A DNA stretch of 64,000 nt from Psilocybe cubensis. Taxonomy: Eukaryota. The DNA lies in assembly GCA_017499595.2 (NCBI GenBank), contig CM039004.1, positions 62,001-126,000 on the forward strand, given 5' to 3'. The first letter of the stretch is position 1. Every line of letters begins with the position of its first letter. The notes beneath the pieces are model-generated. The model saw only the letters and a list, made by a program, of their open reading frames with translations. It searched no databases and had not been told where the DNA came from. The translations under genes and the position numbers were made by a program. Positions 19,640-56,417 of the stretch are shown in pieces.

Positions 19640-20242
19640 GCAAATGGAGGCGGAGGCGGCAGCAACAGGCGGCGAGTGGAGGCGGTGGCAGCAGTAGCGG
19701 CCCGGGGGTGGCGGTGCAACGACACGCAGCAGAGTGCGTGTCGTGGTGGTTGGCGAGTGGACGCGACGGCGGGACGACAGCCGGCGAGGGGAGGCGGCAG
19801 CAGCAGCAGCAGCCCGGAGGTGGCAGTGCAAAGACATGCAGCGGCGAGCGCGAGTGTCGGGACAGCAAGCGCGAGTGTTGGGACAGCAAGCGCAGGCATT
19901 GGGACAGCGAGCGCAGGCGTCGGGGGCGGTGAGACAGGCGGGAGGCCGGCCTCCAGTGCCTGTCAAAAATTATTTTTAGACAGAGGCCGGCCTCCAGTGC
20001 CTGTCAAAAGTTATTTTTAGACGGAGGCCGGCCTCCAGTGGCCTCCATCAATTTGGAGGCCGGCCTCCATAAATTACACATTTAATTACGTAGCACCTCC
20101 GTATGTACAAAATAAAATATTTTGAAAGTGTATTTGGGGGTTTTTGGGGTCCAGGAATCCGAATCTGGCATCAGATTTCAGGAATTCTGAACAGGAGGCC
20201 CAATGCAACGAAGGCCCCCCCTTCGGGGGGGAATAAGCCTAG
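19640..20242 (+). mobile_element. Element X terminal block, copy X1 (left boundary approximate)
   Basis: GC-rich repeats, four GAGGCCGGCCTCC palindromes, AT-rich segment, CCCCCCC-TTC-GGGGGGG hairpin and AATAAGCCTAG end, shared with 23094, 40375 and 56417. Confidence 0.8.
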
Positions 20243-21519
20243 GAACCAGGCCCATCTGTTGAGGATGAAAATGCGGATGTTGAGATGACCACGGACGCGC
20301 CTGCCACGGATGTTGTGCAACCCCTGCCCATTACACCCGACAACGATATGGTCAGATGCCTGCGCCAATCCTATGGATACCTCCCTGGCACAACGACGAC
20401 AGCCTGCGCCGCGTCAGACTGGGATGAACTTGTCGAAACCTTTGGGTTTACAGAGTTACTTACCCCAGAAGTTGCCCTGGACGCTCGACAACATATCCAC
20501 ATGTTTTACATGGCTTCCATCGAGCCTGCGAGCACAGAAATGCCCGCCGCCCTCTCTGACCTCAATACGCACAGCCTGACATCCCTGTCTCGTCTGCTGG
20601 ACCTGTCGCAAATACACCGCCCTCACCAGAATCTTTTTGTTTTTTCAGAACCTCGTTCAGAGGAACACGAGTGGATGTTGGGTGTCGAAACGGCGGAGAT
20701 CGCCCTCTACGTGTGTCGGCTCAGGTTAGAGCACTCCTGGGCTCGCATCGACTCCCTCACAAAAATGCTGCTGGAGAGAGGTGTGCCCTGTCGCACTCTC
20801 ATGGGCATTGAAATGTCGGGTCGCTGCTCCACTGTCCAGGAGCCATACACCCCTCGATCTGTCCGCCCGTCAGCGTACAAATTTGGCGTTGATGACTTCG
20901 AAGCATACCGATTGCAATGCGAGAACATCATCAAACACCAACAACACGGTCGGGCTGCCTTGCTGAGGGGTGGATTGGTGGGTAGGATAGCCAGTGAGTT
21001 TCTGAGCGTCGACGATGGGCTGGCTGGCCCCTCTAAGGAAATCATTCAGAACCGGCAGGGGTTCATCGTGCCAGCTGGCGACACGACTTGGTGTTATTGC
21101 GACGACCAGCTCACGGAGAACGAGCTGTCCATTATATGCGGCACCTACACGCTGTACACAGGTATGTTTTCCTTGTTTATTCTCAATTTTATGCACTAAC
21201 AACATTTTTCTCAGCTACTAAAGGTCAAATAACTGTAAAATCGTGGTTCCCTCCCCCGAACCTGTGGCAGGTGCCCCCCAGCATGAACGGATCACAATGG
21301 GTGGAATGGACGCCTGCCAACGAGGCATGGTACCGTGAACGCGTAGAAGACATCCGCACTCGGCAGGCCCAGCCATTAACAAGAGTGCAATGGAAATCAA
21401 TATTGCGCGGCACTCCTCCCAGTAGGAAGCTTCTGGCGGCAGCGTCTCAACGAGCTCAGGCCTTTGTCAACGGGCACGTACCGGTGGTGCCAACTTATCG
21501 TGTTCGCCCAGGCCTGTAG
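20243..21519 (+). pseudogene. 5'-truncated copy of the X-associated hypothetical gene (intron 21162-21214)
   Basis: Protein nearly identical to the C-terminal part of 51740-55020; lacks the 5' ~2 kb. Confidence 0.85.
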
Positions 21520-21759
21520 TTACATTGTCAATGTAAGTGTTTTTTCATTTAAGAATAGCCCATTCTAACAAAAATATGTAGATATATGCGTGTTTTTTTG
21601 TTCAAAATGTCATATAAATTTATTTTTTGGTGTCTACACAAGAGAGCTCGCGTGAGATATATACAAGTTGATATCAGGGTAAGATGACTAGTTATAAAAA
21701 ATCTAACAAAATTACAGTACAGCAAGGCCGAGGTGTATCAAAGACAAAACAGCGAAATG

Positions 21760-22830
21760 GCAGCGACAGGAGGCGAGTAGAGGCAGCGCGGCGGCAGCGA
21801 CAGGCGGCGACGGCGGGACAACAGGCGGCGACGGCGGAATGACAGGCGGGGAGGGGAGGCGGCAGTGGCAGCGGCGGCCCGGTGTGGCGGCGCAACAACA
21901 CGCAGCAGAGTGCGTGTCGTGGTGGGCGGCGAGTGGACGCGACGGCGGGACGACGCGCGGTGACGTTGTGACGACAGGCGGCGACGGCGGGACGACAGGC
22001 GGCGACGGCGGGACGACAGGCGTTGACAGCGGAATGACAGGCGGCGAGGCAGGCGGCAGCGGCAGCGGCGGTCCGGTGTGACGGCGCAACAACATGCAGC
22101 AGAGTGCGTGTTGTGGTGGGCGGCGACTAGACGCGACGGCGGGACGACGCGCGGTGACGTCGTGACAACAGGCGGCGACGACGGGATGACACGCGGTGAC
22201 GGCTGAACGACAGACGGCGACGGCGGGACGACACGCGCTGACGGCGGAATGACAGGCGGCGAGGGAAGGCGGCAGTGGCAGCGGCGGTCCGGTGTGACGG
22301 CGCAACAACACGCAGCAGAGTGCGTGTTGTGGTGGGCGGCGAGTGGACGCGAAGGCGGGACGACAGGCGGCGACGGCGGGACGACACGCGCTGACGGCGG
22401 AATGACAGGCGGCGAGGGAAGGCGGCAGCGGCATGACAGGGGACGAGGAGAGGCGGCAGCAGCAGCAGCGGCACGGGTGTGGCGGCGCAACAACACGCAG
22501 CAGAGTGCGTGTTGTGGTGGGCGGCGACTAGACGCGACGGCGGGATGACGCGCGGTGACGTCGTGACGACAGGCGGCGACGGCGGGATGACACGCGGTGA
22601 CGGCTGAACGACAGGCGTCGAGTGGAGGTGGCGGCAGCAGCAGCGGCCCGGAGGTGGCAGCGCAACAACATGCAGCGGCAAGCGCAGGCGTCGGGCAGAC
22701 GGCGAGCGCAAGCGTTGGGACGGCGAGCGCTGGCGTTGGGACGGCGAGCGCAAGCTTTGGGACGGCGAGCGCTGGCGTTGGGACGGCGAGCGCAAGCTTT
22801 GGGACGGCGAGCGCTGGCATCGGGAGACAG
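21760..22830. repeat. GC-rich, strand-skewed degenerate tandem repeats of element X
   Basis: Recurring CGCAACAACACGCAGCAGAGTGCGTG units, GACAGGCGGCGACGGCGG subrepeats and 21-nt GGGACGGCGAGCGC units. Homologous to 55240-56110. Confidence 0.85.
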
Positions 22831-23092
22831 GCGGGAGGCCGGCCTCCAGTGCCTGTCAAAAGTTATTTTTAGACGGAGGCCGGCCTCCAGTGGCCTCCAT
22901 CAATTTGGAGGCCGGCCTCCATAAATTACACATTTAATTACGTAGCACCTCCGTATGTACAAAATAAAATATTTTGAAAGTGTATTTGGGGGTTTTTGGG
23001 GTCCAGGAATCCGAATCTGGCATCAGATTTCAGGAATTCTGAACAGGAGGCCCAATGCAACGAAGGCCCCCCCTTTGGGGGGGAATAAGCCT

Positions 23093-24770
23093 AGGCTGGT
23101 CAACTTGCTGACTGTGAGGTGTCTTCAGAATGAACACGCTGCCCTCATACCTCGCATCCTCGAGCTCTCTATCGCATCGCCGTCACCAGGGAGTCCGTCT
23201 GGCAGCGAGTCGGATGGGCATGCTCCGTGCAGTCCCTCCTACTACGTGTTGTACAGGCCGTCGTCATTGGGCTGTTCAACGTTCAGACTGTAGGGTGAGG
23301 TCATACCGTCTCTTCACTCTCCACTGTTGTCACTCTCGCCACTGTGTATCCTGCAGCTATTCCCTCACTCCTACACTTCCCGTGTTGTGTGCGAGGTTGT
23401 TGTCACTCGCATCCGCAACCATCGCAAGCGTCGTGATCGCCTGCTCCTGCACATACCGCCTCACCTGCGTCTGGTCACCGCCCGGATTCAACAACTTCAG
23501 CAGGCGCTTGACAATCGGGTCAAGATAGGAAAGGAGGGTATCACGCTTGATGCCCTCGCAGAAGTTGATAAGCGCCGACGCGGTGTGCGCGTGGACTCGT
23601 GGTTCGGGATCTTCGAGGGCGGGGATGAGGACAGCGAAGAGTTGGCGGTGGAAGCGGTGTTTGTAATTGCTGGGCATTGCAAACTTGGTGGTGGGAAGTT
23701 GATATGTCGCGTCAGAGCATTCAACAAGGTCAGAACGCATCAAAGATACCGCAAGTCGACGTGCTTATGCGGGAAGTCGCTATCTGACTTGTGTCGAGAA
23801 CGCGTTCAGACTAGCTACGTTGTGTCGGAGGAATGGCAGCACGTGTGGGCAGCGGGACACACATTTATTCTGGCTCATCGGACGGCCTTGAAGTCGATAT
23901 GTCGCGTCAGAGCACTCTGGCTACACAAACGAGGTCAGGACGCATGAAGAATACCGCAAATTGACGTACTTACCAACTCTCCTTTAATGTCTTCTAACAG
24001 GTCACCTCGCGTGAAGTCGATACATTGCATCCGAGCATTCAGACTATAGAATAAAAGTCAGAATGTGCCCAAAGCACTTACCATATCTTGATATACAAGT
24101 TGGGTAGAACTATAAAATAGCAGATGGACCGCTCGCGGGAAGTCGATACGTTGCGTCGGAGTATTCAGACTATAAAGTAAACGTCAGAAAGTGACCAAAG
24201 CACTCAAATTCAACTTACTTACCACTCAATGTACAAGTCGAGTAGATGGGCAACTCCCGGGAAATCGATACGTCGTGTCGGAGTATTCAGTCTTTAAAAG
24301 ACCCAATGGACCGCTCGCGGGAAGTCGATACATTGCCTCTGAGCACTCTGGGCTGAAAAAAAAGGTCAGAACAACTCCCAAACCCTGCAAAGTGATGTGC
24401 TTACCAACAAGTCACCCTCAATACGACACCAGCTGTCCACACAAATGCAAAAGTCAGTACAGTGATCAACACCAGATGTAAACTACATACCTTTCAGTCA
24501 CCAAGCCTCTTTGCTCAATGTTCACCGGCCGTCCAAATCTCAAATCAAACCCTGCAATGCATGGTCAGTACCGTGGAACTCTGATGACGGCTGAAAAACT
24601 TACCCATGGTGGTGGTGGTTCAAAGTCAAAGTGTGATGCGACGGCAGTGTCCATGTTTGGCATGGCCAAACAACGGATAGCGGTGGTGGAACATTCCCCC
24701 AGCATCAGGGCATAATGCACGGCTGGAATTCAGCAAATGTACTCCCTCTTTATCCTTTTTTCTGCCAAGG
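23093..24770. repeat. Segmental duplication, copy 2 (of 9640-11149), truncated on the left by X2
   Basis: Identity begins at the AGG shared with the X2 terminus. Confidence 0.88.
23405..23665 (-). pseudogene. Importin-5/Pse1 (Kap121)-like HEAT-repeat gene fragment
   Basis: HRQLFAVLIPALEDPEPRVHAHTASALINFCEG...YLDPIVKRLLKLL...YVQEQAITTLAMVADAS. Flanks are unrelated and the fragment is absent from the duplicate at 9640-11149. Confidence 0.82.
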
Positions 24771-24958
24771 GGTGTCGAAAGAACTGCGTTGAAATGGATA
24801 CATTGCACAAAAACTACGCAAAATACAATGACGTGGCACTCGAGTTCAGACAATTTGAACATCTACGAGGCGCAGACTGTACTGAAACCCTAAACCCTCT
24901 CAAATTTCGAGCTGGATTCATATCAGCCCTTAACTTATCAATTAGGTACTAGTAACAC

Positions 24959-25257
24959 TGTAAGCCTGGAGACTTACCACACACGCAAACACGCACCGCA
25001 GGCGGACGCGCACAACAAAACGGCGCACAAACGCGAGCCCAGATTGGGTCTCGCTAATCAACTTACAAAGATATTGAGACCGAAAGACAAAAGGGAAACA
25101 AATGACCTTCGTTGCTTGACTAGAACGCTACGCAACGAAGGTAAATATATTATAGTAATTTACTACACATCATGTATAGACTAGAACGCTACGCAACGAA
25201 GAGAGCGTTGTCCCTTCTGTTTCAGCGAGTGAGGCTGCCGATCCCGACAGCCTTCCA
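24959..25257 (+). repeat. 5' LTR
   Basis: TGTAAGCCTGGAG...AGCCTTCCA. No differences from the 3' LTR seen by eye. Confidence 0.95.
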
Positions 25258-25314
25258 CTTTTTTTTTGAAGCCGACTACGTACCACCGCCGCACACTGTT
25301 ACCGTTACCGTAAA

Positions 25315-26976
25315 TTGCCCACACTGTATACCGAATCGTCGCGGACCACTCGAGCGTCGACCCAACGACGAGAAGAGCTTGGATTACCCTCAGAGCTTGT
25401 TCCAGGCCTTACTGTTTTCCGCAAACCACGAACTGAACCCCAAGGTCCACCGCCGTCACCGTCTGCCTCATCAGTGAATCTCAGCTTCTCAGATTCAGCG
25501 ACCTCTAACTCAGAGGACGAAGACCATACCGACACACACACTCCCACCGCGATCAGCAATCCGATCAGAGATCGACGCAATCGCCGCAACCCTAGGTATC
25601 CCACCGTTGTCAGAGTCAAGATGCCAAACGATGACGATAAACCGCTCGCTACGGTTGTCCAAAATAAGATGAAGGACGTACCGATTCTCACACCAGGGAA
25701 GATTGATCCTCTGGTAATGCAGCAGTGGGCGGTTGCTTGCCGCAAATACATGAAGCATGCAGCGAAGTCGCCAAAAGAAGTTGTGAAGTTTGTGGCCGAT
25801 GGAATGCAAGAACCAAGACTGGTGGCTTGGTATCAAGCAGATTCCACACGGATTGATGAACTGCCGCTGGAGAAATATCTGGAGGAGCTTCAAGTGCTCG
25901 TGTTGGAGAAGAAGTGGGCTCACAAAGTCCGTGAACAGATCCTAACGTCCTATCAGGGCGACCGTATTTTCATCGACTGGAAGATCGAAATGGAGAATTT
26001 GAATGCGATCTTGAAGACGATGGCACCAGAGGGGTACGCCTTCCCCAATGAAGCATTGAAGATACAGCTCGAGTCACACTTGAACCAGGAGCTTCGTGAG
26101 TCGCTCGGATTCGAGCCAGTCAAGGCCACCGAATTAGCCGCCTGGTCACTGGAAGTAAAGGACCGTGACGACCGCCTTCGTGAGGAACGTGCACGCACCC
26201 AACGTCAAATCGATGCGAGCTACGCAACACGAGTGGCTGCACGCAGGCTTGACAAGAAATCCTTGTTATTGCGTCTCTCGGATAGTCCAAATCCCAACCC
26301 TCGACCATCAAACAGCGAGTTCGATAATGGGGTGCGAAGGCCACTGTTACCTAAAATCACAGCAGAAGAACGTACATTACTCGACAATCACAATGGCTGT
26401 ACCAAATGCCGTCGATTTTACGTCAACCACCGCGCAAGGAACTGCCCAAATGGATGGCCAACAGCAAACGGATACAAGACCCTTACAGAAGAGATGGCAT
26501 TAAAGGCACAACGTGAGAAGGATGCCAAAGAGCAGGGCACTAGGAAGTCCTTGCCCGTGGGGCAAATCAATGCTTCCTCCTCATATACCGTGCATGACGA
26601 GGAGACAGATTCTGATTCGTACGTCCCTACCATGTCTATGACCGTTCCGCACCTCTTTCCAGTTATGGAGATTGAGGGGCCAGCGGTTGTGGATTTTCCT
26701 CTTCGCATTCGACCAATGCTTGATACGGGATCTCCTTCCACAGTGATTGACGAGACACTCGTCACCCAGCTCGGCCTCCCCCGATATCCACTACCACCCG
26801 CCGAGGACAATTTGTCATCGATTGACAATACACCGCTAGAATGCAGGGAGTATGTTAAGATTCGGGTTGCATCAGGAAACGGGAGCTGGATATCACGGAC
26901 ACATAAAGCAAAGATTCATCAAAACCTATCTATACCGCTGCTACTTGGATTGTCATTTCTTTCCCAGAAAATATAG
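25315..26976 (+). CDS. gag: Gag plus aspartic protease (start codon uncertain)
   Basis: Zinc knuckle CTKCRRFYVNHRARNC and protease motif MLDTGS. Ends at a frameshift within the protease C-terminus. Confidence 0.85.
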   Translation: MPTLYTESSRTTRASTQRREELGLPSELVPGLTVFRKPRTEPQGPPPSPSASSVNLSFSDSATSNSEDEDHTDTHTPTAISNPIRDRRNRRNPRYPTVVRVKMPNDDDKPLATVVQNKMKDVPILTPGKIDPLVMQQWAVACRKYMKHAAKSPKEVVKFVADGMQEPRLVAWYQADSTRIDELPLEKYLEELQVLVLEKKWAHKVREQILTSYQGDRIFIDWKIEMENLNAILKTMAPEGYAFPNEALKIQLESHLNQELRESLGFEPVKATELAAWSLEVKDRDDRLREERARTQRQIDASYATRVAARRLDKKSLLLRLSDSPNPNPRPSNSEFDNGVRRPLLPKITAEERTLLDNHNGCTKCRRFYVNHRARNCPNGWPTANGYKTLTEEMALKAQREKDAKEQGTRKSLPVGQINASSSYTVHDEETDSDSYVPTMSMTVPHLFPVMEIEGPAVVDFPLRIRPMLDTGSPSTVIDETLVTQLGLPRYPLPPAEDNLSSIDNTPLECREYVKIRVASGNGSWISRTHKAKIHQNLSIPLLLGLSFLSQKI

Positions 26977-27029
26977 TCATTGATACTCGGAAACGAACGG
27001 CTATTGATAAGCGTTCTGGATATGATTTA

Positions 27030-30000
27030 ATGAATCCACCAACAAGAGATACTCTTGCTGCAAAGAGCACTGCTATCTGTGAGGGATTAAAGACGGACGC
27101 AGGGATAGATCAGGACAAACAGAGAAGATCGGCCATGGCAAAGGAACAACATCTGCGATCACAGGTCGAACCAGAGCGTGCAAAACAGTTGGTAGCAGCG
27201 ATTAATGAGCAAATCAGCAACATTCAATTTCAGCAGAAGCTATTGCGCATGGACAAAGAAATGAAAGAGAAATATCGAGATCGCTTTCCTGACCGCCTAC
27301 CAGACAACGTAGATATTCCTGATCACATATATCACCGGATACGATTGGTGGACAAAGACAAGATACATGCGGGTCGAGGATACGCTGCTCCAAAGAAATA
27401 TCACGATGCATGGAAGAAGCTTCTTGACGAGCATCTGGCCGCGGGACGTATCCGACCATCCTCATCTGAATATGCATCGCCAGCATTCTGCATTCCAAAG
27501 TATAAAAACGGAGTACCTGACCTGTCAGTACCACCACGATGGGTAAACGATTATCGGGAGATCAATAAGAACACTATATCTGACAAATTTCCACTTCCAC
27601 GAGTAGATGACATTCTTGCAGACTGTGGAAAAGGCAAATTCTTTGCAAAATTAGACATGACCAACAGTTTCTTCCAAACACGAGTACACCCAGACGACAT
27701 TCACTTGACAGCTGTGCGTACACCATGGGGCCTATACGAATGGGTTGTGATGCCAATGGGCGGGAAGAATGCGCCAGCTACACATCAACGGCGAATGACA
27801 GATGCATTACGGGAACTCATTGCACAAGTATGTCACGTCTATCTAGACGATATTGTGATCTGGGCAGACACCTTGGAACAACTATCAGAACGAGTAGAAA
27901 AGGTCTTGAAAGCGCTTCGGAAAGCGGGACTTTATTGTAATGCGAAGAAATCAGTCCTTTTTGCAACTGAAATTATCTTTCTGGGACATGTTATTTCCGC
28001 AAACGGCATTCACGCAGACCCTGCAAAGACAGACCGAATCAAGAAATGGCCACGACCAACAAACGCAACAAATGTACGTGGATTTCTAGGACTCACAAGA
28101 TATCTGGCTGTCTTTCTCCCTGCGCTCGCGGAACATACTAGCATCTTATCACCACTGACAAGCAAAGAATGCGATCGCGACTTCCCCAAATGGACCGCCG
28201 ATCATGATCGAGCCTTTAACGCAATCAAGGAACTGGTTACAGGGGCGGAATGCCTCACTGTCATTGATTACGATGACCCTGAAGGGAAGATCTACGTGAC
28301 AACAGATGCAAGCGATAGGCGAACAGGTGCAGTCTTGAGTTTTGGAAAAGATTGGGAATCAGCAAGACCAGTTGCATACGATTCATATCAGCTGAAAGAC
28401 GCAGAAAAGAACTATCCAACACACGAAAAAGAACTCCTGGCAATTGTGAAAGCATTGAAAAAGTGGCGCAGCAGTCTTTTAGGGGTCAAATTTGAAGTCT
28501 ACACTGACCACCGAACATTGGAATATTTTCAGGCGCAGAAAGAGATGTCACGTCGGCAGATGAGATGGTCGATGTACATGGCAGATTTCGATTTCGAGAT
28601 ATGTTACATCCGAGGGGAGGAAAATGTAGCAGCAGATGCCCTATCAAGGATGCCGGACGAAGAGCCAAATTCAAGATTTGCAGCCTGTGCATTGGCCTAT
28701 ACACGGAACCCTAATCGCGCCCCAAGAGGATTTGTGGGATCAGTGTTATCTATTGAAATTGACCAGGAGTTTGTACAGGCAATAAAGGATGGGTATGATG
28801 CCGATCCGTTTGTTAAGCAATTTCGAGATGGAATGCAAAAGCACAGTCTAACAGGAGCACGAGAAGAAGAAGGGCTGATTTATCTTGGACAAAGACTAGT
28901 AATCCCAAACGATAGGAAGATCCGAGAACGACTGTATTATCTGGCTCACGATGTTTTGGGTCATTTTGGATTTGACAAATCGTATGAAGCATTACACGGG
29001 TCGTACTACTGGCCTAACATGCGAAGAGATCTCGAAAAGGCATATATTCCTTCGTGCACGGAATGTCAGCGAAACAAAGACCGAACAACCAAACCTACAG
29101 GACCACTTCACCCACTTCCTGTCCCAGACAAACGACTCACGTCAGTTGCATTGGACTTTATTGGACCATTGCCCGAGGAGAAGGAACGCGACACAATACT
29201 CACGATGACTTGCCGTTTAGGTACTGATATACAACTGATTGCAACTCACTCCTCATGGACCACAGAACAAATTGCGCACAAAGTTGTTGACCACTGGATT
29301 TGCGAAAATGGATTGATGGAAGAATTAATCTGTGATCGCGACACAATCTTTACATCAGATCTATGGACTGCAATATGCAAGATTTTGAATGTAAAGATCA
29401 AGATGTCGACCGCCTATCATCCAGAAACCGATGGAGCGAGCGAGAGAACAAATAAAACCGTCAATCAAGCAATACGATACTATGTGGATAGAAACCAAAA
29501 AGGCTGGTTAGACAAGCTCCCTCGCATTCGGTTCGCAATGATGAACACAGTAAATGCATCGACAGGATACTCGGGTTTCCAACTGAAGACAGGTCGATCT
29601 CCACGGATTATTCCTACAATGGCAAAGGCAAACAAGGATGCACCAATGGTGGAAACATCAGCAAGAGAGATCATTCGGAAAATTGAGATCGATGTGAAGG
29701 AAGCGCAGGATGCCTTACATACAGCCAAGATCCGACAAGCAGCTCAGGCAAATGAGCAGCGAGGTAACGAGATCGTGTACCAACCAGGCGATATGGTAAT
29801 GCTCTCTACAAAGAACCGGCGACGCAACTACAAACGGAAGGGGAAGAAAAGGGTGGCAAAGTTCATGCCACGGTTTGATGGACCGTACGTTGTAGAGGCT
29901 GCCTTCCCCGAACGATCAGAATATACACTGAGGTTACCAAACAACCCAAAGACGTTCCCGGGGTTCCATGCCAGCCTTTTAAAACCATTCGTGCCGAATG

Positions 30001-30248
30001 ATCCAGAGAAATTTCCGGACAGAGAATTGGTACGACCACCAACAGTGATAACCGAGGACGGGGTGGAAGAGACAGTGATAGAGAAAATTGTGGATGCGAG
30101 AAAACGTGGTAGAGGGATGCAATATCTGGTACGATGGGCTGGATTTGGGAAGGAGCATGATGAGTGGCTTCCAGGGCGTATGCTTGAAGAGAATGAAGCA
30201 CTGGATAGATGGGAAGAGGAAGAGGCCGAGGACAAAGAAGACGAATAA
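27030..30248 (+). CDS. pol: Pol: RT, RNase H, integrase, chromodomain
   Basis: RT YLDD, RNase H TDAS and YTDH, integrase HHCC (H..GH..C..C) and D..D..E core, GPY motif, chromodomain YLVRWAGFGKEHDEW. Confidence 0.95.
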   Translation: MNPPTRDTLAAKSTAICEGLKTDAGIDQDKQRRSAMAKEQHLRSQVEPERAKQLVAAINEQISNIQFQQKLLRMDKEMKEKYRDRFPDRLPDNVDIPDHIYHRIRLVDKDKIHAGRGYAAPKKYHDAWKKLLDEHLAAGRIRPSSSEYASPAFCIPKYKNGVPDLSVPPRWVNDYREINKNTISDKFPLPRVDDILADCGKGKFFAKLDMTNSFFQTRVHPDDIHLTAVRTPWGLYEWVVMPMGGKNAPATHQRRMTDALRELIAQVCHVYLDDIVIWADTLEQLSERVEKVLKALRKAGLYCNAKKSVLFATEIIFLGHVISANGIHADPAKTDRIKKWPRPTNATNVRGFLGLTRYLAVFLPALAEHTSILSPLTSKECDRDFPKWTADHDRAFNAIKELVTGAECLTVIDYDDPEGKIYVTTDASDRRTGAVLSFGKDWESARPVAYDSYQLKDAEKNYPTHEKELLAIVKALKKWRSSLLGVKFEVYTDHRTLEYFQAQKEMSRRQMRWSMYMADFDFEICYIRGEENVAADALSRMPDEEPNSRFAACALAYTRNPNRAPRGFVGSVLSIEIDQEFVQAIKDGYDADPFVKQFRDGMQKHSLTGAREEEGLIYLGQRLVIPNDRKIRERLYYLAHDVLGHFGFDKSYEALHGSYYWPNMRRDLEKAYIPSCTECQRNKDRTTKPTGPLHPLPVPDKRLTSVALDFIGPLPEEKERDTILTMTCRLGTDIQLIATHSSWTTEQIAHKVVDHWICENGLMEELICDRDTIFTSDLWTAICKILNVKIKMSTAYHPETDGASERTNKTVNQAIRYYVDRNQKGWLDKLPRIRFAMMNTVNASTGYSGFQLKTGRSPRIIPTMAKANKDAPMVETSAREIIRKIEIDVKEAQDALHTAKIRQAAQANEQRGNEIVYQPGDMVMLSTKNRRRNYKRKGKKRVAKFMPRFDGPYVVEAAFPERSEYTLRLPNNPKTFPGFHASLLKPFVPNDPEKFPDRELVRPPTVITEDGVEETVIEKIVDARKRGRGMQYLVRWAGFGKEHDEWLPGRMLEENEALDRWEEEEAEDKEDE

Positions 30249-45490: not shown

Positions 45491-47024
45491 TTGTTGGACG
45501 ACATATTGCTTCTACCGTGTGGGGTTAATATCAGCGTTGTTTTAATGGAAATAAACTCACGATTGATTGAACTGAGCAATATTATGTGTCATCCCGAACG
45601 TATGGTGTTCGTTCACCAGTAGCTGTACACTGGCCAGTGTGCGATGGGCTGCGAGCTGGAGTTGTTTGCCCCATGGCTCGGTCTTGGCGTCTGGTAGCCT
45701 AGTAACCTCCTGGATGTCGACAGGGGTCAACCCTTTCACTGCGTCAAGCCATCCTTCGCGGAAGAGAAACAAGGACAGATTTTGCGGGTCCTCAATGTTT
45801 TGGATGGGCAACTGTGTGTAATCGGGTGGAGGCGGCATTGTTGTTCCAAAAACAGTCGAGTATGCAAAGGGAATGTCCTGGCAAAGTGAGAGGCAAGAGG
45901 TGTCCACTGGAAAATACCGCTTGCTTGGGCCTTTTGTAAGTATCTGCCCGTACATCGTGTAGCAAGCGCGCTGCGTGATAGGCACTTGGCAACGCTGCCC
46001 GTTAGACTGGTGACCCTGCAGGCTCAACAACGAGTTGTAGCCACGGTGGCATTTGGAACAAAAATGGAGCTGATCAGCCTCGATAGGAATCCCAAAAATC
46101 AGACGGATTGGTCCAGCGCTGTAGGCTATCTCAGCCAGCGACACAATCCCGTATTTCCGCCGAAGATCTTCGAGCAATGTGGGGCCTGGTGTATAGTGTG
46201 CATTGTGCTGCTTGACGTGTGCGCACACCAACGCCGGCTCAATCGCTTCCTTACATTCTATGCAGATAACAATCTTGAGAAAAGTGTTGATAACAATTCC
46301 AAGGGCCGGAAGATTGTGCGTGTCGTCGTAGATCATTGTGTGGTCATCGGGTACAATGTCGTAGAGCGAAACATCTACTTCCATCGCAGTGGTGGGCGTG
46401 GCGCAAATAGGCGGTGGCTGATGCATGCCCGGAGGTGGCGGTGTCATCCTCTGCGCAGATACGTTGCGCAGTGGTGCAGGAGAAACGGGCCCAGGTATCA
46501 TCGTTGGGGGCGATCCTGGGCTCGAGACCAACGGACGCGGCGACCCCTGGCTGCTGATAGCGCGCGGGCCAAGAAACGTGCGCGTAGATGGCCAACTTGC
46601 CGCAGGGGTTACCGGCGCAGGAATCATTGTTGGGGGCGATCCTGCCCTCGAGCCCAAGGGACGCGGCGACACTTGCCTGCTGGGAGCGTGCGGGATAAGA
46701 AACAAGCGCGTAGATGGCTGATGAAGCTGTGAAGCGGAAGGTGCGGCTCTTGTAGGAGGTGCAGCTCCCCAAGATGGGCGAGGGAGCTGTGATGAAAACA
46801 TGGGCGCCGGCGACGGTGGAGATAATGATCGCTCGTTGTCTGAGGTCTGCTGGGAAACCTCCAACGATGGTTCTGCGTGTGAATCAGCAAAGTGCCGCTG
46901 TAGTATGGATTTAGCATGAAATATCAAAACACATCGGAAACTAGCTCACCTGTAAACTGTAGGGCGTACTGTACGCCTTGCGGCAGTGTGTGCATGGAAA
47001 TTTCATGTCGGCGTTGCGTGGCAT
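45491..47024 (-). pseudogene. N-terminus of a probable telomere-linked RecQ-helicase (TLH)-type gene (C2H2 finger plus DUF3505/OrsD-like domain), 3'-truncated
   Basis: Exons 47024-46950, 46897-45561 and 45511-45491. Motifs CTHC..AYSTPYSLQ|RHFADSH and IVICIECKEAI..HVKQH...CSKC..Y..LQGH...RYFPV. The helicase domain itself is not in the window, so the family call is inferred. Confidence 0.6.
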
Positions 47025-47095
47025 GACAGTATCGCCTACTGTGACCAATCGCTGGTTGTCTTTTCGCCTTGCACGACCTTCGTGTCCGAGTGGTA

Positions 47096-49849
47096 CCTAC
47101 CATCTTTTTGATAAAACAATAGCAAGTGTTAGCACACTCTTTTTATAACTGTTGATGGTTTTATCACAAAGCAAAATAATGAGAAGACTGGTCTATTTCT
47201 CATAAGTTTACTTCGCTTTTTCAAAGCCTTTTTCATTAGATAATACCCTTCTTTCTCATTATCTTTAGGGCGCTTTTTCATTACCTTTTGATTAGATACT
47301 AGCCTGGTTATTTGATAAGATTGTTCTACATCAATATATCTTATCTTTGCTTGGTCATTTCTGATGCCATGCCATCAAATCAGGAACACTGTGGGTACTT
47401 CTAGGCCATGTCTATCAATCCATCAAAGCTATTATTAAATAAACTTTTCTCTCCTCGGCCCCTTGGTCTATAAATAGTGCTCATCCTATGCTACTTTTGT
47501 GCATTGCTGGCAATGCATTGGGCGCTTTTGGGGGCATTTCTGGACCGTTTCCCTTGGTATTTTTTGGTATACCTATAGTTTTAAGGTGTCCCAATTTGAA
47601 TCTGAAATCAGAATTGCAATATCTTTACTCATTATTGTGCAATTAAGCGTACGATGTTTTGATCAAAAAGCGCACCTTGAATAGCACCATCCAGGGGCTG
47701 GTATGCACCATTTTGACTATGCAATTATTTTTTATTTATAATAGACGGAGTACATGCCAAGTTTCAGATCAATTGGAGCAGTGGAACCTATTGAACTAGC
47801 ATATGCATCCTACCTCTCCTCCTACCCCTTGTATGAATACCTTCCTGATCAGATAAATTCAAGCCTAACTGGGATAAAATAGGAGCTTATTATACCAATT
47901 TTTAGAGCCCAAAATCTTGGTGTAATTCTAAGATTTAAGGGTACTACCCCCCATCCTCTCCAGAATTTGTATATTTTATTATGGGGTAGAATGGCCATTC
48001 CCAGCACATATAGGTATTTAAATCTGCTCTATATAGTACCACAAACGCAATACATATGTTTGAAACATTCTGGATGAAGTAGAACACCTTGGTTATGAGG
48101 CTAATAAGAAGGTATTAGATGTGCAATATAATATGACCATATCACCGCTTATACTTCACCAAAATGCACATATCTTACATTCCCAGATAGCTACCAAAGT
48201 CCTCTACATATTATATTAATGGTGCCAAATAGCCAGAACGCTTAACAAGATGGTACAAGAAGAATAAGCATTATTGTTCAAAAATGGAGGAAAAGCGAAA
48301 TATGATGTGGAAGACAACACTTATAAAATACATAAACTATACGGCTGTGTAGCCCTAAATGACACCTATCTGTGGTATATAGACTCATGGAAATCCGATG
48401 AGTATGAGCTGAGATATGTCAAAATGTATCTCGGAGAAAGGCCAAAGAGGTGACCACAAACAAAGCATAAATAAAGGCCAATATCCATCCGGGTCTCTGA
48501 TGGGTTCTTCAACACCTTTCTTTCCATATCTCAACACCCACTGGTCCGATGCACAACATCCTTAATGTTCTGGAAAGCTACATTTTGGGGCTATACTATC
48601 CTGCTTTTATATTTCCTGATCTTGAATGTTTATATATGGTAAATGCGAAAATACTGTGCATTTTGATGAAGATTGGTATTCTCTCTGCAGTGTCTCATCT
48701 AATGGATGGATCTTTTTGAACCTTGAGAATAATATTTAGTAGGGACCTGTAGGTATTTGTAGACGTCAAGAATATGATTTATGACAATGTATTTGTAGAG
48801 ATATGGCCTGATCAATAACCTACCATACCTATCCTCATACCCCCCCTTAAATCAGTATGTTCCCTTGTTGAAGAGGGCTTTCAAGGGTAAATTTTGGACT
48901 CTATGTACTGTTAGTAGTGGATCTACATGTCTTTCAATGGTCTGAGAGCCCATCCTATCCCATAATAAAATACACAAGTTCTGGAGGGAGTAGGGGGTAG
49001 TACCCTTAAATCTTAAAGTTTCACCAATTTTTTAGGCTTTAAAAATTGGTATAATAAGCGCCTACTTTATTCCAGTTGGGCTTGAATTTATCTGATCAGG
49101 AAGGTATTCATACAAGGGGTAGGAGGAGAGGTAGGATGCATATGCTAGTTCAATAGGTTCCACTGCTCCAATTGATCTGAAACTTGGCATGTACTCTGTC
49201 TATTATAAATAAAAAATAATTGCATAGTCAAAATGGTGCATACCAGCCCCTGGATGGTGCTATTCAAGGTGCGCTTTTTGATCAAAACATCGTACGCTTA
49301 ATTGCACAATAATGAGTAAAGATATTGCAATTCTGATTTCAGATTCAAATTGGGACACCTTAAAACTATAGGTCTACCAAAAAATACCAAGGGAAACGGT
49401 CCAGAAATGCCCCCAAAAGCGCCCAATGCATTGCCAGCAATGCACAAAAGTAGCATAGGATGAGCACTATTTATAGACCAAGGGGCCGAGGAGAGAAAAG
49501 TTTATTTAATAATAGCTTTGATGGATTGATAGACATGGCCTAGAAGTACCCACAGTGTTCCTGATTTGATGGCATGGCATCAGAAATGACCAAGCAAAGA
49601 TAAGATATATTGATGTAGAACAATCTTATCAAATAACCAGGCTAGTATCTAATCAAAAGGTAATGAAAAAGCGCCCTAAAGATAATGAGAAAGAAGGGTA
49701 TTATCTAATGAAAAAGGCTTTGAAAAAGCGAAGTAAACTTATGAGAAATAGACCAGTCTTCTCATTATTTTGCTTTGTGATAAAACCATCAACAGTTATA
49801 AAAAGAGTGTGCTAACACTTGCTATTGTTTTATCATAAAAAGTGGTAGG
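47096..49849. repeat. Long inverted repeat: arms ~47096-47993 and ~48950-49849, spacer ~950 bp, AT-rich
   Basis: Arms are reverse complements with very few mismatches over ~47110-47867 and are more diverged at both edges. No TSD or ORF seen. Confidence 0.92.
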
Positions 49850-50328
49850 GACTAGTGCGTGTCCACCATCGTCTTCTGTTTCCCTCCTGCGTCGCTTCGC
49901 TGGTTCAGATGGATCTGGAATCAAACGGTTAGTACATGTAACCGCTATAAAACACCCTACTGACCTTCCATCCCCGTTTTTTGTTGGAAAATGCTTGGAA
50001 GTTTGGTGTCTGGGTGAGGGAAGGGAACAGGATAGGCCCACAAACAACGCTGGGGGTGGAAGGGGTTTATATCTGAGAACGACGCCCTACGCTCTGCGAT
50101 GGAAGGCGAGAATATTTGCCCTCCAGAAGACGTATAGGGGTGTAAAGAAGAGATCGATAGTTAATTGACTGTCGTTCCGATAAGAGGAAAGGGCTGAATT
50201 AATCAGACGCCTGAGTGCACGACAGTCCGAAGGCGTCCCAATCAAAAATCGCCCCCGACACAATAGACGGCGGCAAGGCGTTGTGCGCAAGCATATTGGG
50301 AGGCCAGGTCGTGTGTAACGCGCACAAA

Positions 50329-50952
50329 CCAGAGAGCTCTGGTTGCACAATAACGCAACAGCCCACGACCAGAGATCTCTGGAGGCAGGTATATCGATAC
50401 GCGATCACAGAATCAGGGTAGGAGGTCGAGTGGAACACTTATACCAGGCCGACGGAATCCTTGGACGAAGTGGAGTCAAACCAAAGAGCTTTGGTTTGTA
50501 GCGTTGGGGGGAACCACGACCAGAGAGCTCTGGAGGCGGATGGATATGTGGGGGTGCATTGACAGGAGCAAGCTCTTGAAGATCGAAGCGCCGTGAGGTG
50601 TGGTGCGACACGGAGAAGGATGGACAAGGCAGTACCAAAGAGCTTTGGTACTGACGGCCCACGATCCACAACCAAAGAGCTTTGGAGGTGGACAGAACCC
50701 GCTATCTCTTGAAGATTGAAGTGCCGTGAGGGGGGGTGCGACATGGAGGAGGATGGACTAACCAGTACCAAAGAGCTTTGGTACTGACGGCCCACGATCC
50801 ACGACCAAAGAGCTTTGGAGGTGGACAGAACCCGCTATCTCTTGAAGATCGAAGTGCCGTGAGGGGGGGTGCGACACGGAGGAGGATGGACTAACCAGTA
50901 CCAAAGAGCTTTGGTACTGTTTGCCCACGATCCACGACCAAAGAGCTTTGGA
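50329..50952. repeat. Array of ten quasi-palindromes CCA(A/G)AGAGCT(T/C)TGG, partly within ~133-bp tandem units
   Basis: Copies at ~50329, 50369, 50481, 50520, 50635, 50672, 50768, 50805, 50901 and 50938. Confidence 0.85.
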
Positions 50953-51093
50953 GGTGGATGGAGAACAGGAACACTCTGGGGTTGCGATCAACAGGGCCCG
51001 CGAGCGGTCACGTGATTAATTGAAACTCCGCTCTGGGCGTTTTTTCAACCTTCCAATGCTAAGTCCACTTCCTTCTTTAGCACGCACGCACAC

Positions 51094-51610
51094 TACAGAA
51101 GCTCTTCTGTAGCACGCCGCGTCTGCCATCCCAGAAAGGTTACAGAAGCTCTTCTGTAGCCACTCTGGTTCTTCCCTGCCCCGACGTTTGACACTTCATG
51201 TCAGCCGTCCGAGATTCGTTACAGAAGCTCTTCTGTAGCCAGCCTCGTTCTTCCCTCCACCCCCATTTTTGACTTCACGTCTGTCATCCGAGATAGGCTA
51301 CAGAAGCTCTTCTGTAGCCGCCCTCACTCTTTCCTCCGCCCTTGTTTCCAAACGCATCCACCAACACCCACGGCCCCGACCTCTGAGAACTACAGAAGAT
51401 CTTCTGTAGCGATCTGAGGGCACTGCAGAAGCTCTTCTGCAGGCATCTGGATCCATCCCGATCATCCCAACTGTTCTGCTTGTAGCCACCCTCGCTCTCT
51501 CCTCCGCCCTTGTTGCCAGACGCGTCCACCAACACCAACACCCCCGACCTCTGAAAACTACAGAAGATCTTCTGTAGCGATCTGAGGCGACTGCAGAAGC
51601 TCTTCTGCAG
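51094..51610. repeat. Array of eight quasi-palindromes CT(A/G)CAGAAG(C/A)TCTTCTG(T/C)AG
   Basis: Copies at ~51094, 51141, 51220, 51298, 51389, 51423, 51558 and 51591. Confidence 0.85.
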
Positions 51611-51739
51611 CCATCTAAGGCCATCGCCATCGTCCCGATCCTTCTTCTCTGCGCCCACAACACATACCTGAAGCGCCGTTCCTCACCGTAAGTGTTCGCG
51701 TTCGTTGCCCACATATGCTTGTTACTTACTCTGCTGCAG

Positions 51740-54700
51740 ATGTCCCAGCAAACCCACGTCGATTGGGCCCAAGGGTCCGCGTTTGTCCAGAAGGGCACCA
51801 TATACGTGTCCCCCAACTGCAAGCGTGTCGTCATCATCCCACCCGCTGAAGTCGACGTCACCAACCCCTTCGAACAAAAGACAACACCAGCAGCACCTCG
51901 GCGACGAGACCTGGATTTAGAGGCCCTCAAGCAGCCAGTGCGCTGGCACGATCAGTACGGATGGATCGCCTTCATACCCTTGGCGCCATCCTTCGTGTCC
52001 TTGCCGTTTAATTTTTTGTGCTGGTCTCCAAAGATTTTGCGCAATAAACCGCACAAGTCTCTGGCCACGTATGAAATGGAGTGGCACAGTGTGAAAGAAT
52101 GGCGCCAATTGGATGAAAACATCACCCTTCTGTGCGAAAAGATCCGCTTATGGTGTCGCGTTCCTGGAACCCCACCTCCTAGCCCCAAAAGCTTCGGTTA
52201 CGATCTCAGGTATAGCTCTGAAGCAGACGCGCAAAGGAGCTTTGAGGCCACCCGAAACGCATTTATCCTGTGGATGGGCTACCTGTCGTATCTCGTCGCC
52301 CAAAGTCGTCGCGAGATCTATTCAAAGCACATCAAGCACGATCCCAAAAGCCCCGTCCCTGCATGGCATGAACGCCTCCGCGCTAAGCATCCTGACATCT
52401 CAGAAGTATGGCTGGATGGCTTGTATCATTCCAACGCGTTTTTGTTTAACGCCAGGACCCCTTGTGTCGGCATGGTCTACAAGTTGAGCAGCACCCACGC
52501 GACACGCCCTCCCATCGAATGGCTTCTGGAACACCATGTTCCAGTGTATTATCCGTGGCGGATGCGGGAAGAGGAGATCTTCCTCACTCATAAAATACTC
52601 AATCTTGAACTTCGCCCCCCCCCCCCGCGCGACTTGTTGGCGGCAACACTTACCGACCTATTCAAGTCGATGGACGTGTCTCTTGCAGCCGCCTTTGCGC
52701 GCAAATTTTTCAATAAATCTCATTCGACGGAGGGCCTCACGATGAAGTCGCTGGGAGATGAGTACTCCACTACTTTGGTGTATTCTATCCTCAGTAACGA
52801 TTTCGCCCACAACTCAGAGGCATTGGATCAGCACATGTCCCAGCCATATGAAGAATTGGAAAAAAAGCTCCAAAAGAGAGACGAGGAACAGCGTCAGCTC
52901 GCCATTGACAGCGCCAACCTGCCTACGCTGCGCATGATCGAACTGGCGAATGAAAACCACAAGTTGCTGACCTCTGTGCACAATGACTGGGACGCTTACT
53001 GGGCTGCAAGGGTGGAAGAACGACGACAGATTCTGGCCAAAGAGACGCCAGAAGCTAGACAGGCTCGGCTGAACCAAGAGAACAACCCATCGGTGGTACG
53101 TAGCAAAGTATTTGTCTGGAAAACGCTGGTGTCCACAGAGGGAGCCAGTGTTTACATGCGCGAACACATCGCAACGTCACAAAACAGCATTGAGGAGGCC
53201 AAACTTCGCCCACACCGCAAGGTCTACAACGGTGTGACAGACAAATGGGATCTCTGTCGAGATTTGGAACCACCAGCCGAGTTGGCAGGCGCATCCGCAA
53301 TGTTGGAGCAGCGCAATCAGGCACAGACAAGGCCTGCTAGAGGCCAGCATCGCCGCGGTAGAGGTGCACGTCCCGCAAAACAACCCAGGCAGCACCCAAA
53401 ACCAGCACCTGCCGAGGAAGAGTGGGAAGGCGAACCCTGGTACAATACCATTGAACCTGACCCCGATGCGCCGGTGGCCTCAACGTCGGCCCTTCCCCCC
53501 GCTTGTGATCCATCCCCGCCCCCTTTGCCTCCTGACATCCCGACACCCTCATCATCGCGAGACAGACCCCGCCGCGCACCCACGACACCCCCTCGCCCCA
53601 CGCTAGGACGGCGCCTGCGCAGTCGCTCGCCAACACCGCCAGAGGTTGCAATGCACTCTCGCCCACAAGCATGTCGTTCCCCAGAAAGCGAGTCGTGGGT
53701 CCAACAGAGCCCCCCTGCCGTCGTCGAAGATTTCGAGATGGAGGAACCAGGCCCATCTGTTGAGGATGAAAATGCGGATGTTGAGATGACCATGGACGCG
53801 CCTGCCACGGATGTTGTGCAACCCCAGCCCATTACACCCGACAACGATATGGTCAGATGCCTGCGCCAATCCTATGGATACCTCCCTGGCACAACGACGA
53901 CAGCCTGCGCCGCGTCAGACTGGGATGAACTTGTCAAAACCTTTGGGTTTACAGAGTTACTTACCCCAGAAGTTGCCCTGGATGCTCAACAACAGATCAA
54001 ACAGTTTTATCTGGCTTGCATTGAACCCACAAGCACAGAAATGCCGGCCGCCCTCTCTGACCTCAACACGCACAGCCTGACATCCCTGTCTCGTCTGCTG
54101 GACCTCTTGCAAATACACCGCCCTCACCAAGATCTTTTTGTTTTTTCAAAACCTCGTTCAGAGGAACACGAGTGGATGTTGGGTGTTGAAACAGCGGAGA
54201 TCGCCCTTTACGTGTGTCGGCTCAGGTTAGAGCACTCCTGGGCTCGCATCGACTCTCTGACAAAAATGCTGCTGGAGAGAGGTGTGCCCTGTCGCACTCT
54301 CATGGGCATTGAAATGTCGGGTCGCTGCTCCACTGTCCAGGAGCCGTACACCCCTCGATCTGTCCGCCCGTCAGCGTATAAATTTGGTGTTGATGACTTT
54401 GAAGCATACCGATTGCAGTGCGAGAACATCATCAAACACCAACACCACGGTCGGGCTGCCTTGCTGAGGGGTGGATTGGTTGGCAGGATAGCCAGTGAAT
54501 ATCTGAGCGTCGACGATGGCCTGGCTGGGCCCTCTAAGGAAATTATTCAGAACCGGCAGGGGTTCATCGTACCAGCTGGCGACACGACTTGGTGTTATTG
54601 CGACGACCAGCTCACGGAAAACGAGCTGTCCATTATATGCGGCACCTACACGCTGTACACAGGTATGTTTTCCTTGTTTATTCTCAATTTTATGCACTAA

Positions 54701-55020
54701 CAACATTTTTCTCAGCTACTAAAGGTCAAATAACAGTAAAATTGTGGTTCCCTCCCCCAAACCTGTGGCAGGTGCCCCCCAGCATGAGCGGATCACAATG
54801 GGTGGAATGGACGCCTGCCAACGAGGCATGGTACCGTGAACGCGTAGAAGACATCCGCACTCGCCAGGCCCAGCCATTGACAAGAGTGCAATGGAAATCA
54901 ATATTGCGCGGCACTCCTCCCAGTAGGAAGCTTCTGGCGGCAGCGTCTCAACAAGCTCAGGCCTTTGTCAACGGGCACGTACCGGTGGTGCCAACTTATC
55001 GAGTTCGCCCAGGGCTGTAG
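51740..55020 (+). CDS. Large hypothetical protein (~1075 aa; exons 51740-54662 and 54716-55020) carried by element X
   Basis: Long open frame with a GT-AG intron at 54663-54715 that is conserved in copy X2. C-terminal motifs RAALLRGG, DDQLTENELSIICGTY, WFP and EAWYRER resemble a repetitive agaricomycete family of unknown function. Confidence 0.8.
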
Positions 55021-55239
55021 TTACTTTGTTAATGTAAGTGTTTTTCCATGTAAGAATAGCCAATTCTAACAAAAATATGTAGATATATGCGTGTTTTTTT
55101 GTTCAAAATGTCATATAAATTTGTTTTTTGGCGTCTACACAACAGAGCTCCCGTGAGATATTTACAAATGGATGTACAGGTAAGATGAGTAGTCTAAAAT
55201 ATGCTGACAGAATTATACTACAGCAAGGCCAACGCGTGA

Positions 55240-56417
55240 CGCAACCAAAACAGCAAACCAGCAGCGACAGGAGGCAAGCGGAGGCGACGGCGGGGCGACA
55301 GGCGTCGAGTCGAGGCAGCGGCAGCAGCAGCGTGGGTGTAGCGGCGCAACAACATGCAGCAGAGTGCGTGTCGTTGTGGCAGCGAGTGGACGCGGAGGCG
55401 CGACGACAGGCGGCGGCGGGGCGACAGGCGGCGACGGCGGGGCGACAGGCGGCGACGGCGGGACGACAGGCGCTGATGACAGAATGACAAGCGCTGACGG
55501 CGGAATGACAGGCGGCAAGGGGAGGGCAGCAGCGGCAGCGGCGGCCCGGTGTTGCGGCGCAACAACACGCAGCAGAGTGCGTGTCATGGTGGGCGGCGAG
55601 TAGACGCGACGGCGGGACGACACGCGGTGACGGCGGGACAACAGGCGGCGATGGCAGGATGACAGGCGGCGACAGCGGGTTGTGGGCGGCAAGTGGACGC
55701 GAAGGCGCGACGATAGGCGGCAACGGCGGGACGACACGCGTTGACAGTGGAACGACAGGCGGCGAGAGGAGGCGGTAGCGGCAGCGGCCGCCCGGTGTTG
55801 CGGCGCAACAACACGCAGCAGAGTGCGTGTCATGGCGGGCGGCGAGTAGACGCGACGGCGGGACGACACGCGGGTGACGGCGGGACGACAGGCGGCGATG
55901 GCAGGATGACACGCGGGGTGACGGGCTGAACGACATGCGTCGAGTGGGAGGCGGCGGCAACAGCAGCGGCCCGGAGGTGGCAGCGCAACAACATGCAGCG
56001 GCAAGCGCAGGCGTCGGGCAGACGGCGAGTGCAAGCATTGGGACGGCGAGCGCTGGCGTTGGGACGGCGAGCGCAAGCTTTGGGACGGCGAGCGCTGGCA
56101 TCGGGAGACAGGCGGGAGGCCGGCCTCCAGTGCCTGTCAAAAATTTATTTTTAGACGGAGGCCGGCCTCCAGTGCCTGTCAAAAGTTATTTTTAGACGGA
56201 GGCCGGCCTCCAGTGGCCTCCATCAATTTGGAGGCCGGCCTCCGTAAATTACACATTTAATTATGTAGCACCTCCGTATGTACAAAATAAAATATTTTGA
56301 AAGTGTATTTGGGGGTTTTTGGGGTCCAGGAATCTGAATCTGCCATCAGATTTCAGGATTTCTGAACAGGAGTCCCAATGCAACAAAGGCCCCCCCTTCG
56401 GGGGGGAATAAGCCTAG
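55240..56417 (+). mobile_element. Element X terminal region, copy X4 (element extends left through the 51740-55020 gene, possibly to 45491)
   Basis: GC-rich repeats, four GGAGGCCGGCCTCC palindromes (56115, 56157, 56198, 56230), hairpin and AATAAGCCTAG ending at 56417. Confidence 0.82.

Follow-up and report, generated by a model that had tools for sequence, protein, structure and literature searches.

How do several copies of one repeat come to lie head to tail in what appears to be a chromosome-end region, each closed by the same sharply defined terminus on one side and joined directly to a foreign sequence there? This question is raised by a 64-kb stretch of the Psilocybe cubensis genome (contig CM039004.1, positions 62,001 to 126,000; hereafter the window, in whose positions all coordinates are given), which contains four copies of X, a repeat family defined by a common hairpin-ended 3′ terminus. 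The initial annotation of this stretch regarded X as a single-ended element that recombines at this one terminus, uses the telomere as its other end and swaps in a new distal segment at each event. Most likely, however, X is a family of Helitron type and not a new class. The explanation tentatively favoured here is that the 3′ end of this Helitron-like family became attached, through microhomology, to whatever DNA then formed the chromosome end.

The hairpin CCCCCCCTTYGGGGGGG (CCCCCCC-TTY-GGGGGGG) is found four times in the window, each time on the + strand (Table 1), and its count in 100 shuffles of the window is zero. It is followed by AATAAGCCTAG in three of the four copies and by AATAAGCTTAG in the copy ending at 40375. 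When the copies (X1 to X4, ending at 20242, 23094, 40375 and 56417, respectively) are aligned, they are nearly identical up to the final G of the end word and unrelated beyond it, and all four have the same orientation, as was originally described. This is also in agreement with the reported lack of an inverted partner end in the window, as a search of both strands with GGGAATAAGCCTAG, allowing up to two mismatches, returned only the four known sites on the + strand and none on the − strand. The 3′ part common to the copies is about 620 bp long and begins with a 200-bp unit having an ACACGCA...TGCGTGT palindrome. Then come G-rich repeats of 21 bp and three to five repeats of 41 bp, after which an AT-rich stretch precedes the hairpin and the end. 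The palindrome GGAGGCCGGCCTCC sits in the 41-bp repeats, and every one of its 16 sites in the window is inside X. The same 3′ module closes three unrelated bodies, namely the X4 type and the segments W_A and W_B, and the likeness of X1 and X3 (the ends of W_A and W_B, respectively) to X4 is limited to this module. Among metagenome contigs, there were no exact matches to the 24-nt end motif.

Canonical Helitrons have neither inverted repeats nor target duplications; their 5′ ends are hard to see, and the families are defined by their 3′ ends, which close varied bodies. Together, these traits explain much of the single-ended look of X. The terminus itself agrees with the HelSearch rule for Helitron 3′ ends, which specifies at least six stem pairs, a loop of 2-4 nt and a distance of 5-8 nt to CTRR (PMC4289320, in excerpt): the X end has a 7-bp stem, a 3-nt loop, a 7-nt spacer and CTAG in three of the four copies, with TTAG in the fourth. 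The hairpin-to-boundary distance is 11 nt, with CTAG exactly where the four copies diverge, which is the placement expected of a Helitron hairpin (16-20 nt, some 10-12 nt before a boundary CTRR). This places the end among known kinds. By itself, a motif of this type is not rare, as the window has 19 such sites on both strands (three of the four X ends included), compared with a mean of 5.65 in 20 shuffles; its exact placement on the boundary of a repeat family is far from chance.

Three of the X ends can be compared with a second copy of the sequence to their right. At join 1 (20243), the neighbour is the cut copy X2, with a paralogue at 53744 (87% over 2314 bp); at join 2 (23095), it is W_B, with a paralogue in W_A from 9642 (94% over 310 bp); and at join 3 (40376), it is the 667-bp unit U, with paralogues at 44787 and 5280 (99% and 96% over about 680 bp). 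The X end and its neighbour overlap by AGG at joins 1 and 2 and by AG at join 3, so that joining at AG or AGG, as proposed from the start, is seen at all three checkable joins; the chance of at least two shared bases at three of three joins is about (1/16)^3, or about 1 in 4000 trials. The telomere-side part of the neighbour is missing, as had also been claimed, since neither 51692-53743 nor the DNA to the left of 9642 has a second copy in the window. The description of three intact targets needs correction: paralogues are present for all three, but the site at 44785 is a sister U behind telomere-like repeats. Both this U and the one at 5280 are preceded by a degenerate telomere-like tract and a reverse transcriptase (RT) element, and join 3 lies at the 5′ edge of its U, where the other two copies bear the telomere-like repeats. 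The base right after the X end word is G, G, C and G in the four copies, and telomere repeats follow the X 3′ end in none of the four, join 3 alone having about 20 nt of degenerate CTAAC/TAAG words. Two of the three right-hand neighbours are themselves X-ended segments, which is expected for layering by one end and unlikely for random insertion.

Independent reads bear on the first of these joins. Two raw Illumina runs having the same species label (X11 and X12) and the contigs of two other runs were compared with the window between 49500 and 57500 at 85% likeness, a range that has join 1 within reach and joins 2 and 3 outside. The join from 56415 back to 53742 is seen in 19 reads of X11 and 14 reads of X12, and in both runs the depth right of 53742 is higher by about 0.6 of a single copy. 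These data show that join 1, as first read from the window, exists and is shared by other strains; the size of the depth step implies that the left half of X2 occurs nowhere else at 85% likeness. The depth over the last 270 bp of X is 787 in X11 and 691 in X12 and falls to 47 and 55, respectively, in the next flank bin, which corresponds to ratios to the flank of about 17 and 13; the ratios are about 6 and 4 for the preceding 270 bp and about 2.5 and 2 for the X body. Reads that diverge after 56417 number 213 (X11) and 183 (X12), and those that diverge after 56418 number 229 and 195. The mutual agreement among these loose-end reads, 442 in X11 and 378 in X12, is low (0.41 in X11 and 0.41-0.43 in X12), which points to many different right flanks of the X end. 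Among the loose-end reads listed, the base after CTAG is G in 52%, the consensus of the rest being A.

This constancy of the end is difficult to reconcile with the idea that X is no mobile element at all and that its end is a hairpin switch point for break-induced or microhomology-mediated copying between subtelomeres. The microhomology at the joins and the presence of subtelomeric blocks in two to three copies would suit such copying. The donor point should then vary, however, whereas it is fixed to the base in all four copies of the window; a fixed X end at 13-17 times the flank depth in two other runs is not expected either, and an overlap of 2-3 nt is too imprecise to fix it. Of the explanations considered here, this one is the least probable.

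The surroundings of X look like those of a chromosome end. CCCTAA occurs 50 times in the window and TTAGGG 5 times, and each of the three clean (CCCTAAA)4-5 blocks adjoins, on the left, a cut element, which is Y at 2266, W_A at 5990 and X4 at 45489 (Table 1). The X copies, the RT elements and the telomere blocks all have a single polarity, and this repeat polarity suggests that the window is a chromosome-end region, with no terminal telomere within it. Y has weak RVT_1 matches (E 5e-6 and 2e-4), and its relatives form a large family of proteins of about 1170 residues, in which TDKNLG is invariant in the 26 aligned members of 26. A search of PDB sequences with Y and with the Y family profile gave nothing useful, and an endonuclease domain was not found in the Y/U elements. 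Y is followed by a telomere-like tract, U and a CCCTAAA tail, with a second U in front, in the manner of a pseudo-LTR (long terminal repeat). Within U, at 45306-45355 on the + strand and about 100 bp before the CCCTAAA tail, there is a weak match to the type III hammerhead (Hammerhead_3; 15.8 bits versus a cut-off of 48.5), in which the CUGA.GAG core and helix II are present and AAAA replaces GAAA; a similar stretch is at the same place in the copies of U at 5280-5946 and 40376-41042. In Penelope-like elements, hammerhead motifs occupy such a position. These elements are diagnosed by a DKG-type motif whose third residue varies, and those deficient in endonuclease attach to chromosome ends (PMC8557442, in excerpt). 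The build of Y/U is that of endonuclease-deficient Penelope-like elements such as Coprina and Athena, of which it is a candidate member.

As end-attaching RT elements lie in the same stack (PMC8557442), an RNA route to the X joins has to be weighed. A transcript of X ending past the hairpin would be reverse-transcribed onto the chromosome end, for example by a Coprina-like RT, with the 3′ end of the chromosome priming the synthesis via the AG(G) overlap. End-primed reverse transcription is marked by a defined 3′ end, a variable 5′ extent and overlapping bases at the join, and the last seven nucleotides, GCCTAGG, resemble one CCCTAAA unit. This route is nevertheless very unlikely: none of the four X ends has a poly(A) or telomere-repeat tail, the cut copy X2 still has the 53-nt intron of the X gene (at 21161-21213), the segments are 10-14 kb long, the X end resembles the terminator of a DNA transposon, and an Rfam search of the 3′ module gave chance-level hairpin matches only and no ribozyme match. 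Neither X4 nor X2, W_A or W_B has an RT.

One gene is confirmed inside X. A frame of 1002 codons at 51692-54700 matches a P. cubensis protein with 100% identity, and the gene of X4 on the + strand runs from an ATG at 51740, across a 53-nt intron (54662-54714), to a stop at 55018-55020, with a product of 1075 residues. This product belongs to an unnamed Agaricomycete family (1422 representatives at E<=0.001) and has no match in the local copy of Pfam. Its AlphaFold model is confident (pLDDT 80.5) and has two domains; by Pfam, Foldseek and VIA, no reading as a nuclease or recombinase is possible. At 13 metagenome loci with relatives of the gene, there was no X-like hairpin end, there were no telomere repeats, and there was no DNA likeness to X4 beyond the gene. 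As these relatives have no X-like end, the gene may be cargo or flank. A tblastn search with 157 proteins, in which two regions only were matched, found no relatives in W_A or W_B. Upstream of the gene, at 50329-51607, two perfect palindromes form arrays, CCARAGAGCTYTGG with 10 sites and ACAGAAGMTCTTCTG with 8, neither of which is found elsewhere in the window; from their sequence, these arrays look like putative repeated protein-binding sites. In the left part of X4, an open reading frame (ORF) on the − strand (45560-46945), truncated by the healed break at 45489, lies near OrsD-type zinc-finger proteins in a protein atlas (score 0.97), which is a lead only.

These data bear on the stricter form of the single-ended idea, in which X would be a new class with its own recombinase, exchanging the whole distal segment, with the telomere as the second end. 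The one-sided joins, the constant end, the AG bias and the missing distal halves would all follow from it. Nevertheless, X shows no domain of a recombinase, nuclease or transposase, and its end belongs to a known type. Join 3 is at the edge of an element and not within a target, and the telomere-capped cut 5′ ends show erosion and healing, which are able to explain the lost halves. Such a class is highly improbable. As regards the view of X as a chromosome-end element in the initial annotation, the one-sided, co-oriented joins remain, but end replacement by X is unsupported; swapping in of a distal segment by recombination is likewise unsupported, as addition to eroded ends or terminal deletion gives the same picture.

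In the explanation that is favoured here, X would be the terminator (3′) end of a Helitron-like rolling-circle family of P. cubensis, and the chromosome-end region would have grown outward in layers, in which telomere-tailed retroelements and X-ended segments follow each other head to tail. Each X join would be one-sided: a copy, linear or single-stranded, would pair by its free 3′ end, via two or three bases (AG or AGG), with the DNA at the chromosome end of that moment, and would then be copied or ligated on. The receiving end could be an eroded end or the 5′ end of the element added last, and the distal half of the neighbour would have been lost before the join, not exchanged by X. With terminal joining, same-orientation stacking, microhomology and missing distal halves are automatic, and it also places X ends against cut X-ended segments and a join at the 5′ edge of the last retroelement. 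The copies of X in the window are non-autonomous or cut.

Several observations weigh against this explanation. The A-T insertion rule of Helitrons is not followed, the base after the end word being G, G, C and G and not T. The 5′ TC end of X is not identified in the window, where X4 is cut at 45489 and X2 at 20243; a Rep/helicase domain is found in none of the 39 window ORFs scanned against Pfam; and the X4 gene product is without a recognisable fold (no Foldseek match at E<=0.001; best VIA Z 4.8). In stability, the X hairpin does not exceed shuffled versions of its 60 nt (z -0.98). The mosaic of W_A and W_B is left unexplained, and the left edge of Zp1 (9642) could be the true 5′ end of W, in which case join 2 would be a tandem placement, not a cut. 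To our knowledge, no experiment has shown a chromosome end capturing a Helitron copy on one side only. In Paramecium, moreover, Helitron 3′ ends are followed by telomere repeats (PMC13085455, in excerpt), which is the case for none of the four X ends.

The same terminus can also be read in terms of ordinary Helitron biology, and both this reading and the favoured one assume a rolling-circle family. In the accepted view, Helitrons integrate by both ends, at an A-T site. Same-orientation copies would then arise by nested insertions (W_B beside U, an X4-type element into W_B, and W_A into the X4-type element) or by end bypass, in which an element reads through its own terminator, stops at the next downstream X end and carries the right-hand host part along. 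One later terminal deletion inside W_A, healed at 5990, would remove all left halves. This is the main alternative, though rather unlikely, and several points are in its favour: the end is the same Helitron-type end, the right-hand neighbours of joins 1-3 each extend to another X end, terminal breakage with healing is documented three times in the window, and 3′-flank capture by missed termination and tandem cut Helitrons are known (PMC5148889 and PMC11934779, both in excerpt). It requires, however, two successive insertions into its own family, all in the orientation of the telomere. The A-T rule is not followed here either, and the two flanks of W_A (R at 9641 and X2 at 20243) do not combine into one known sequence. 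The donor of a copy-and-paste end bypass should moreover persist, whereas join 1 has a copy number of about one or less, with no kept donor copy visible. If this two-ended reading is true, the window is a clear example of a fungal subtelomere built of Coprina-like elements, healing scars and nested Helitrons.

If the favoured explanation is true, joining of the terminator end, on one side only, to chromosome ends is a new mode of Helitron integration and a second, DNA-based way of chromosome-end extension beside telomerase and terminal retroelements. A further step, that a Helitron-type element acts as a DNA-based chromosome-end patch in a telomerase-bearing mushroom, is doubtful. A released strand, ending at the terminator, would be caught by eroded or freshly extended ends through the pairing of two to three bases and then copied, and rolling-circle elements and endonuclease-deficient Penelope-like retroelements would alternate in building the subtelomere.

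Table 1. Positions of X-ended segments and accompanying elements in the 64-kb window.
Feature	Position	Strand	Description
RT element, relative of Y	1-2228	+	54% amino-acid identity; (CCCTAAA)n tail at 2229-2265
5′-cut Y	2266-5222	+	Followed by telomere-like tract, U (5280-5946) and (CCCTAAA)4
W_A	5990-20242	+	X1-terminated segment; left bound (CCCTAAA)4 at 5947-5975
X1	19690-20242	+	3′ module of X; hairpin 20215-20231; end ...AATAAGCCTAG; 3′ end of W_A
X2	20243-23094	+	X4-type body, 5′ cut inside gene; matches 53744-56417 at 87%; own 3′ module and end; hairpin 23067-23083
W_B	23095-40375	+	X3-terminated segment; 3′ module 39735-40375; hairpin 40348-40364; end ...GCTTAG
Candidate Coprina-like retroelement between X3 and X4	40376-45488	+	U (40376-41042), CCCTAA, RT ORFs Y (41049-44606), telomere-like tract (44730-44786), U (44787-45453), (CCCTAAA)5
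X4, left part	45489-47088	+	Cut at 45489; capped by (CCCTAAA)5 at 45454-45488
F	47089-49860		DNA transposon within X4; inverted ends of about 900 bp; edges accurate to a few bases
X4, right part	49861-56417	+	Palindrome arrays 50329-51607, gene, G-rich tandem repeats, 3′ module, hairpin 56390-56406

Going leftward from its right edge, the window shows the flank, X4, a telomere tail, U-Y-U, W_B with X3, X2, W_A with X1 and another telomere tail, followed further leftward by U-Y, a telomere tail and the relative of Y, everything being in one orientation. X4 as a whole spans 45489-56417 and is interrupted by F. The edge of F at 49861 was considered as another one-ended join and rejected, as the left DNA continues across F: the sequence at 47055-47084, left of F, is that found before 49861 in other X copies (5 differences in 30). 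F is therefore a plain insertion and no part of X. Its depth is about 11 times that of the flank in two other runs, and its site is empty in other runs and copies. In one run, a contig extends 9.1 kb to the left of 49861. To the right of the last X end, at a distance of 576 bp, there is a small element with 284-bp inverted ends (56993-58191). The depth in X11 and X12 drops to 0 by 57243-57500, and this stretch is therefore absent or very different in these strains.

W_A and W_B share four patches in the same order, at 9642-9951, 10706-11150, 13743-13896 and 19690-20242 in W_A and at 23095-23404, 24323-24771, 33772-33927 and 39735-40375 in W_B, and nothing else. That they are simple duplicates was rejected, since alignments between the patches are no better than those of shuffled sequence (0.419 versus 0.40-0.41, 0.401 versus 0.41-0.42 and 0.448 versus 0.40-0.43). 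The third patch (13743-13896 and 33772-33927) is a 155-bp unit of three 55-bp repeats, each with AACCCTAA words; it is 92% alike between the two segments, with unrelated flanks on both sides, and may be an old telomere-associated repeat. W_B also contains a chromodomain Gypsy retrotransposon (24959-30599). The two 299-bp LTRs of this element are identical, its target duplication of 5 bp is AACAC, and it looks like a recent insertion.

X can be compared with several known systems that act at chromosome ends or by one end. In the one-ended transposition of bacterial IS91/ISCR elements, one end suffices, and the word that is cleaved at the element end is similar to the target word. These elements need the origin end, the terminator being dispensable, whereas the constant end of X is terminator-like. 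HeT-A and TART of Drosophila, and endonuclease-independent LINE-1 insertions at uncapped telomeres, likewise show one orientation, cut 5′ ends and microhomology. They are RNA-mediated, however, with oligo(A) at the join, and X has no oligo(A). The Coprina, Athena and Terminon elements (PMC8557442) share with this region the head-to-tail terminal stacks, the cut 5′ ends and the attachment to chromosome ends, and the Y/U elements, candidates for this kind, lie between the X copies. X differs from them in having no RT, telomere-repeat tail or hammerhead motif, whereas Y/U has an RT with the invariant DKN motif, CCCTAAA tails and the weak hammerhead-like stretch.

Canonical Helitrons are known from Pleurotus. 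They make no target duplication, measure 1.5-13.7 kb and have a 3′ end of CT[A/T]G behind a subterminal hairpin, and the families use an A-T target, with a host T after the 3′ end (PMC4289320). HELPO1 and HELPO2 of Pleurotus ostreatus resemble X, as far as they are described there, in the GC hairpin followed by CT[A/T]G at the exact boundary, in the absence of inverted repeats, in this range of lengths, in the occurrence of one 3′ end on different bodies and in the basidiomycete host. X differs from them in its G/G/C/G flank, in the missing left halves of its neighbours and in the orientation of all copies along the telomere, and neither a 5′ TC end nor Rep/helicase was found for it in the window. 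A basidiomycete element of the kind seen here was not found in the literature covered, most subscription journals lying outside the search. The initial annotation knew of no such basidiomycete element, but with telomere-restricted Helitrons now described in Paramecium (PMC13085455), its idea stands less alone than it supposed.

In this 2026 report, the nearest case so far described, the germline chromosomes of Paramecium are capped by Helitrons whose 5′ end is always distal and whose 3′ end is proximal. The Helitrons of Paramecium aurelia are, in the excerpt, confined to chromosome ends, with internal telomere blocks of one polarity, are rich in satellites between the ORF and the ends, and have ORF-less derivatives that outnumber the full copies; telomere repeats flank both ends, and normal insertion into the C-rich strand is proposed (PMC13085455). 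The giant 9-10-kb transposase ORF of these elements is not seen in the window, and X differs also in its joins, at which it overlaps by AG(G) with a neighbouring element that is either cut or complete. Helitron-like repeats accumulate in cnidarian subtelomeres as well (PMC11934779). X resembles the Paramecium elements in its orientation, in the satellites and palindrome arrays before its end and in its context: all four X ends are on the CCCTAA strand, with the 3′ end towards the chromosome centre, and their position would be terminal. If the favoured explanation is true, the finding of telomere-capping Helitrons extends from ciliates to fungi, and P. cubensis, of which many strains have been sequenced, becomes a tractable host for the search for new end events.

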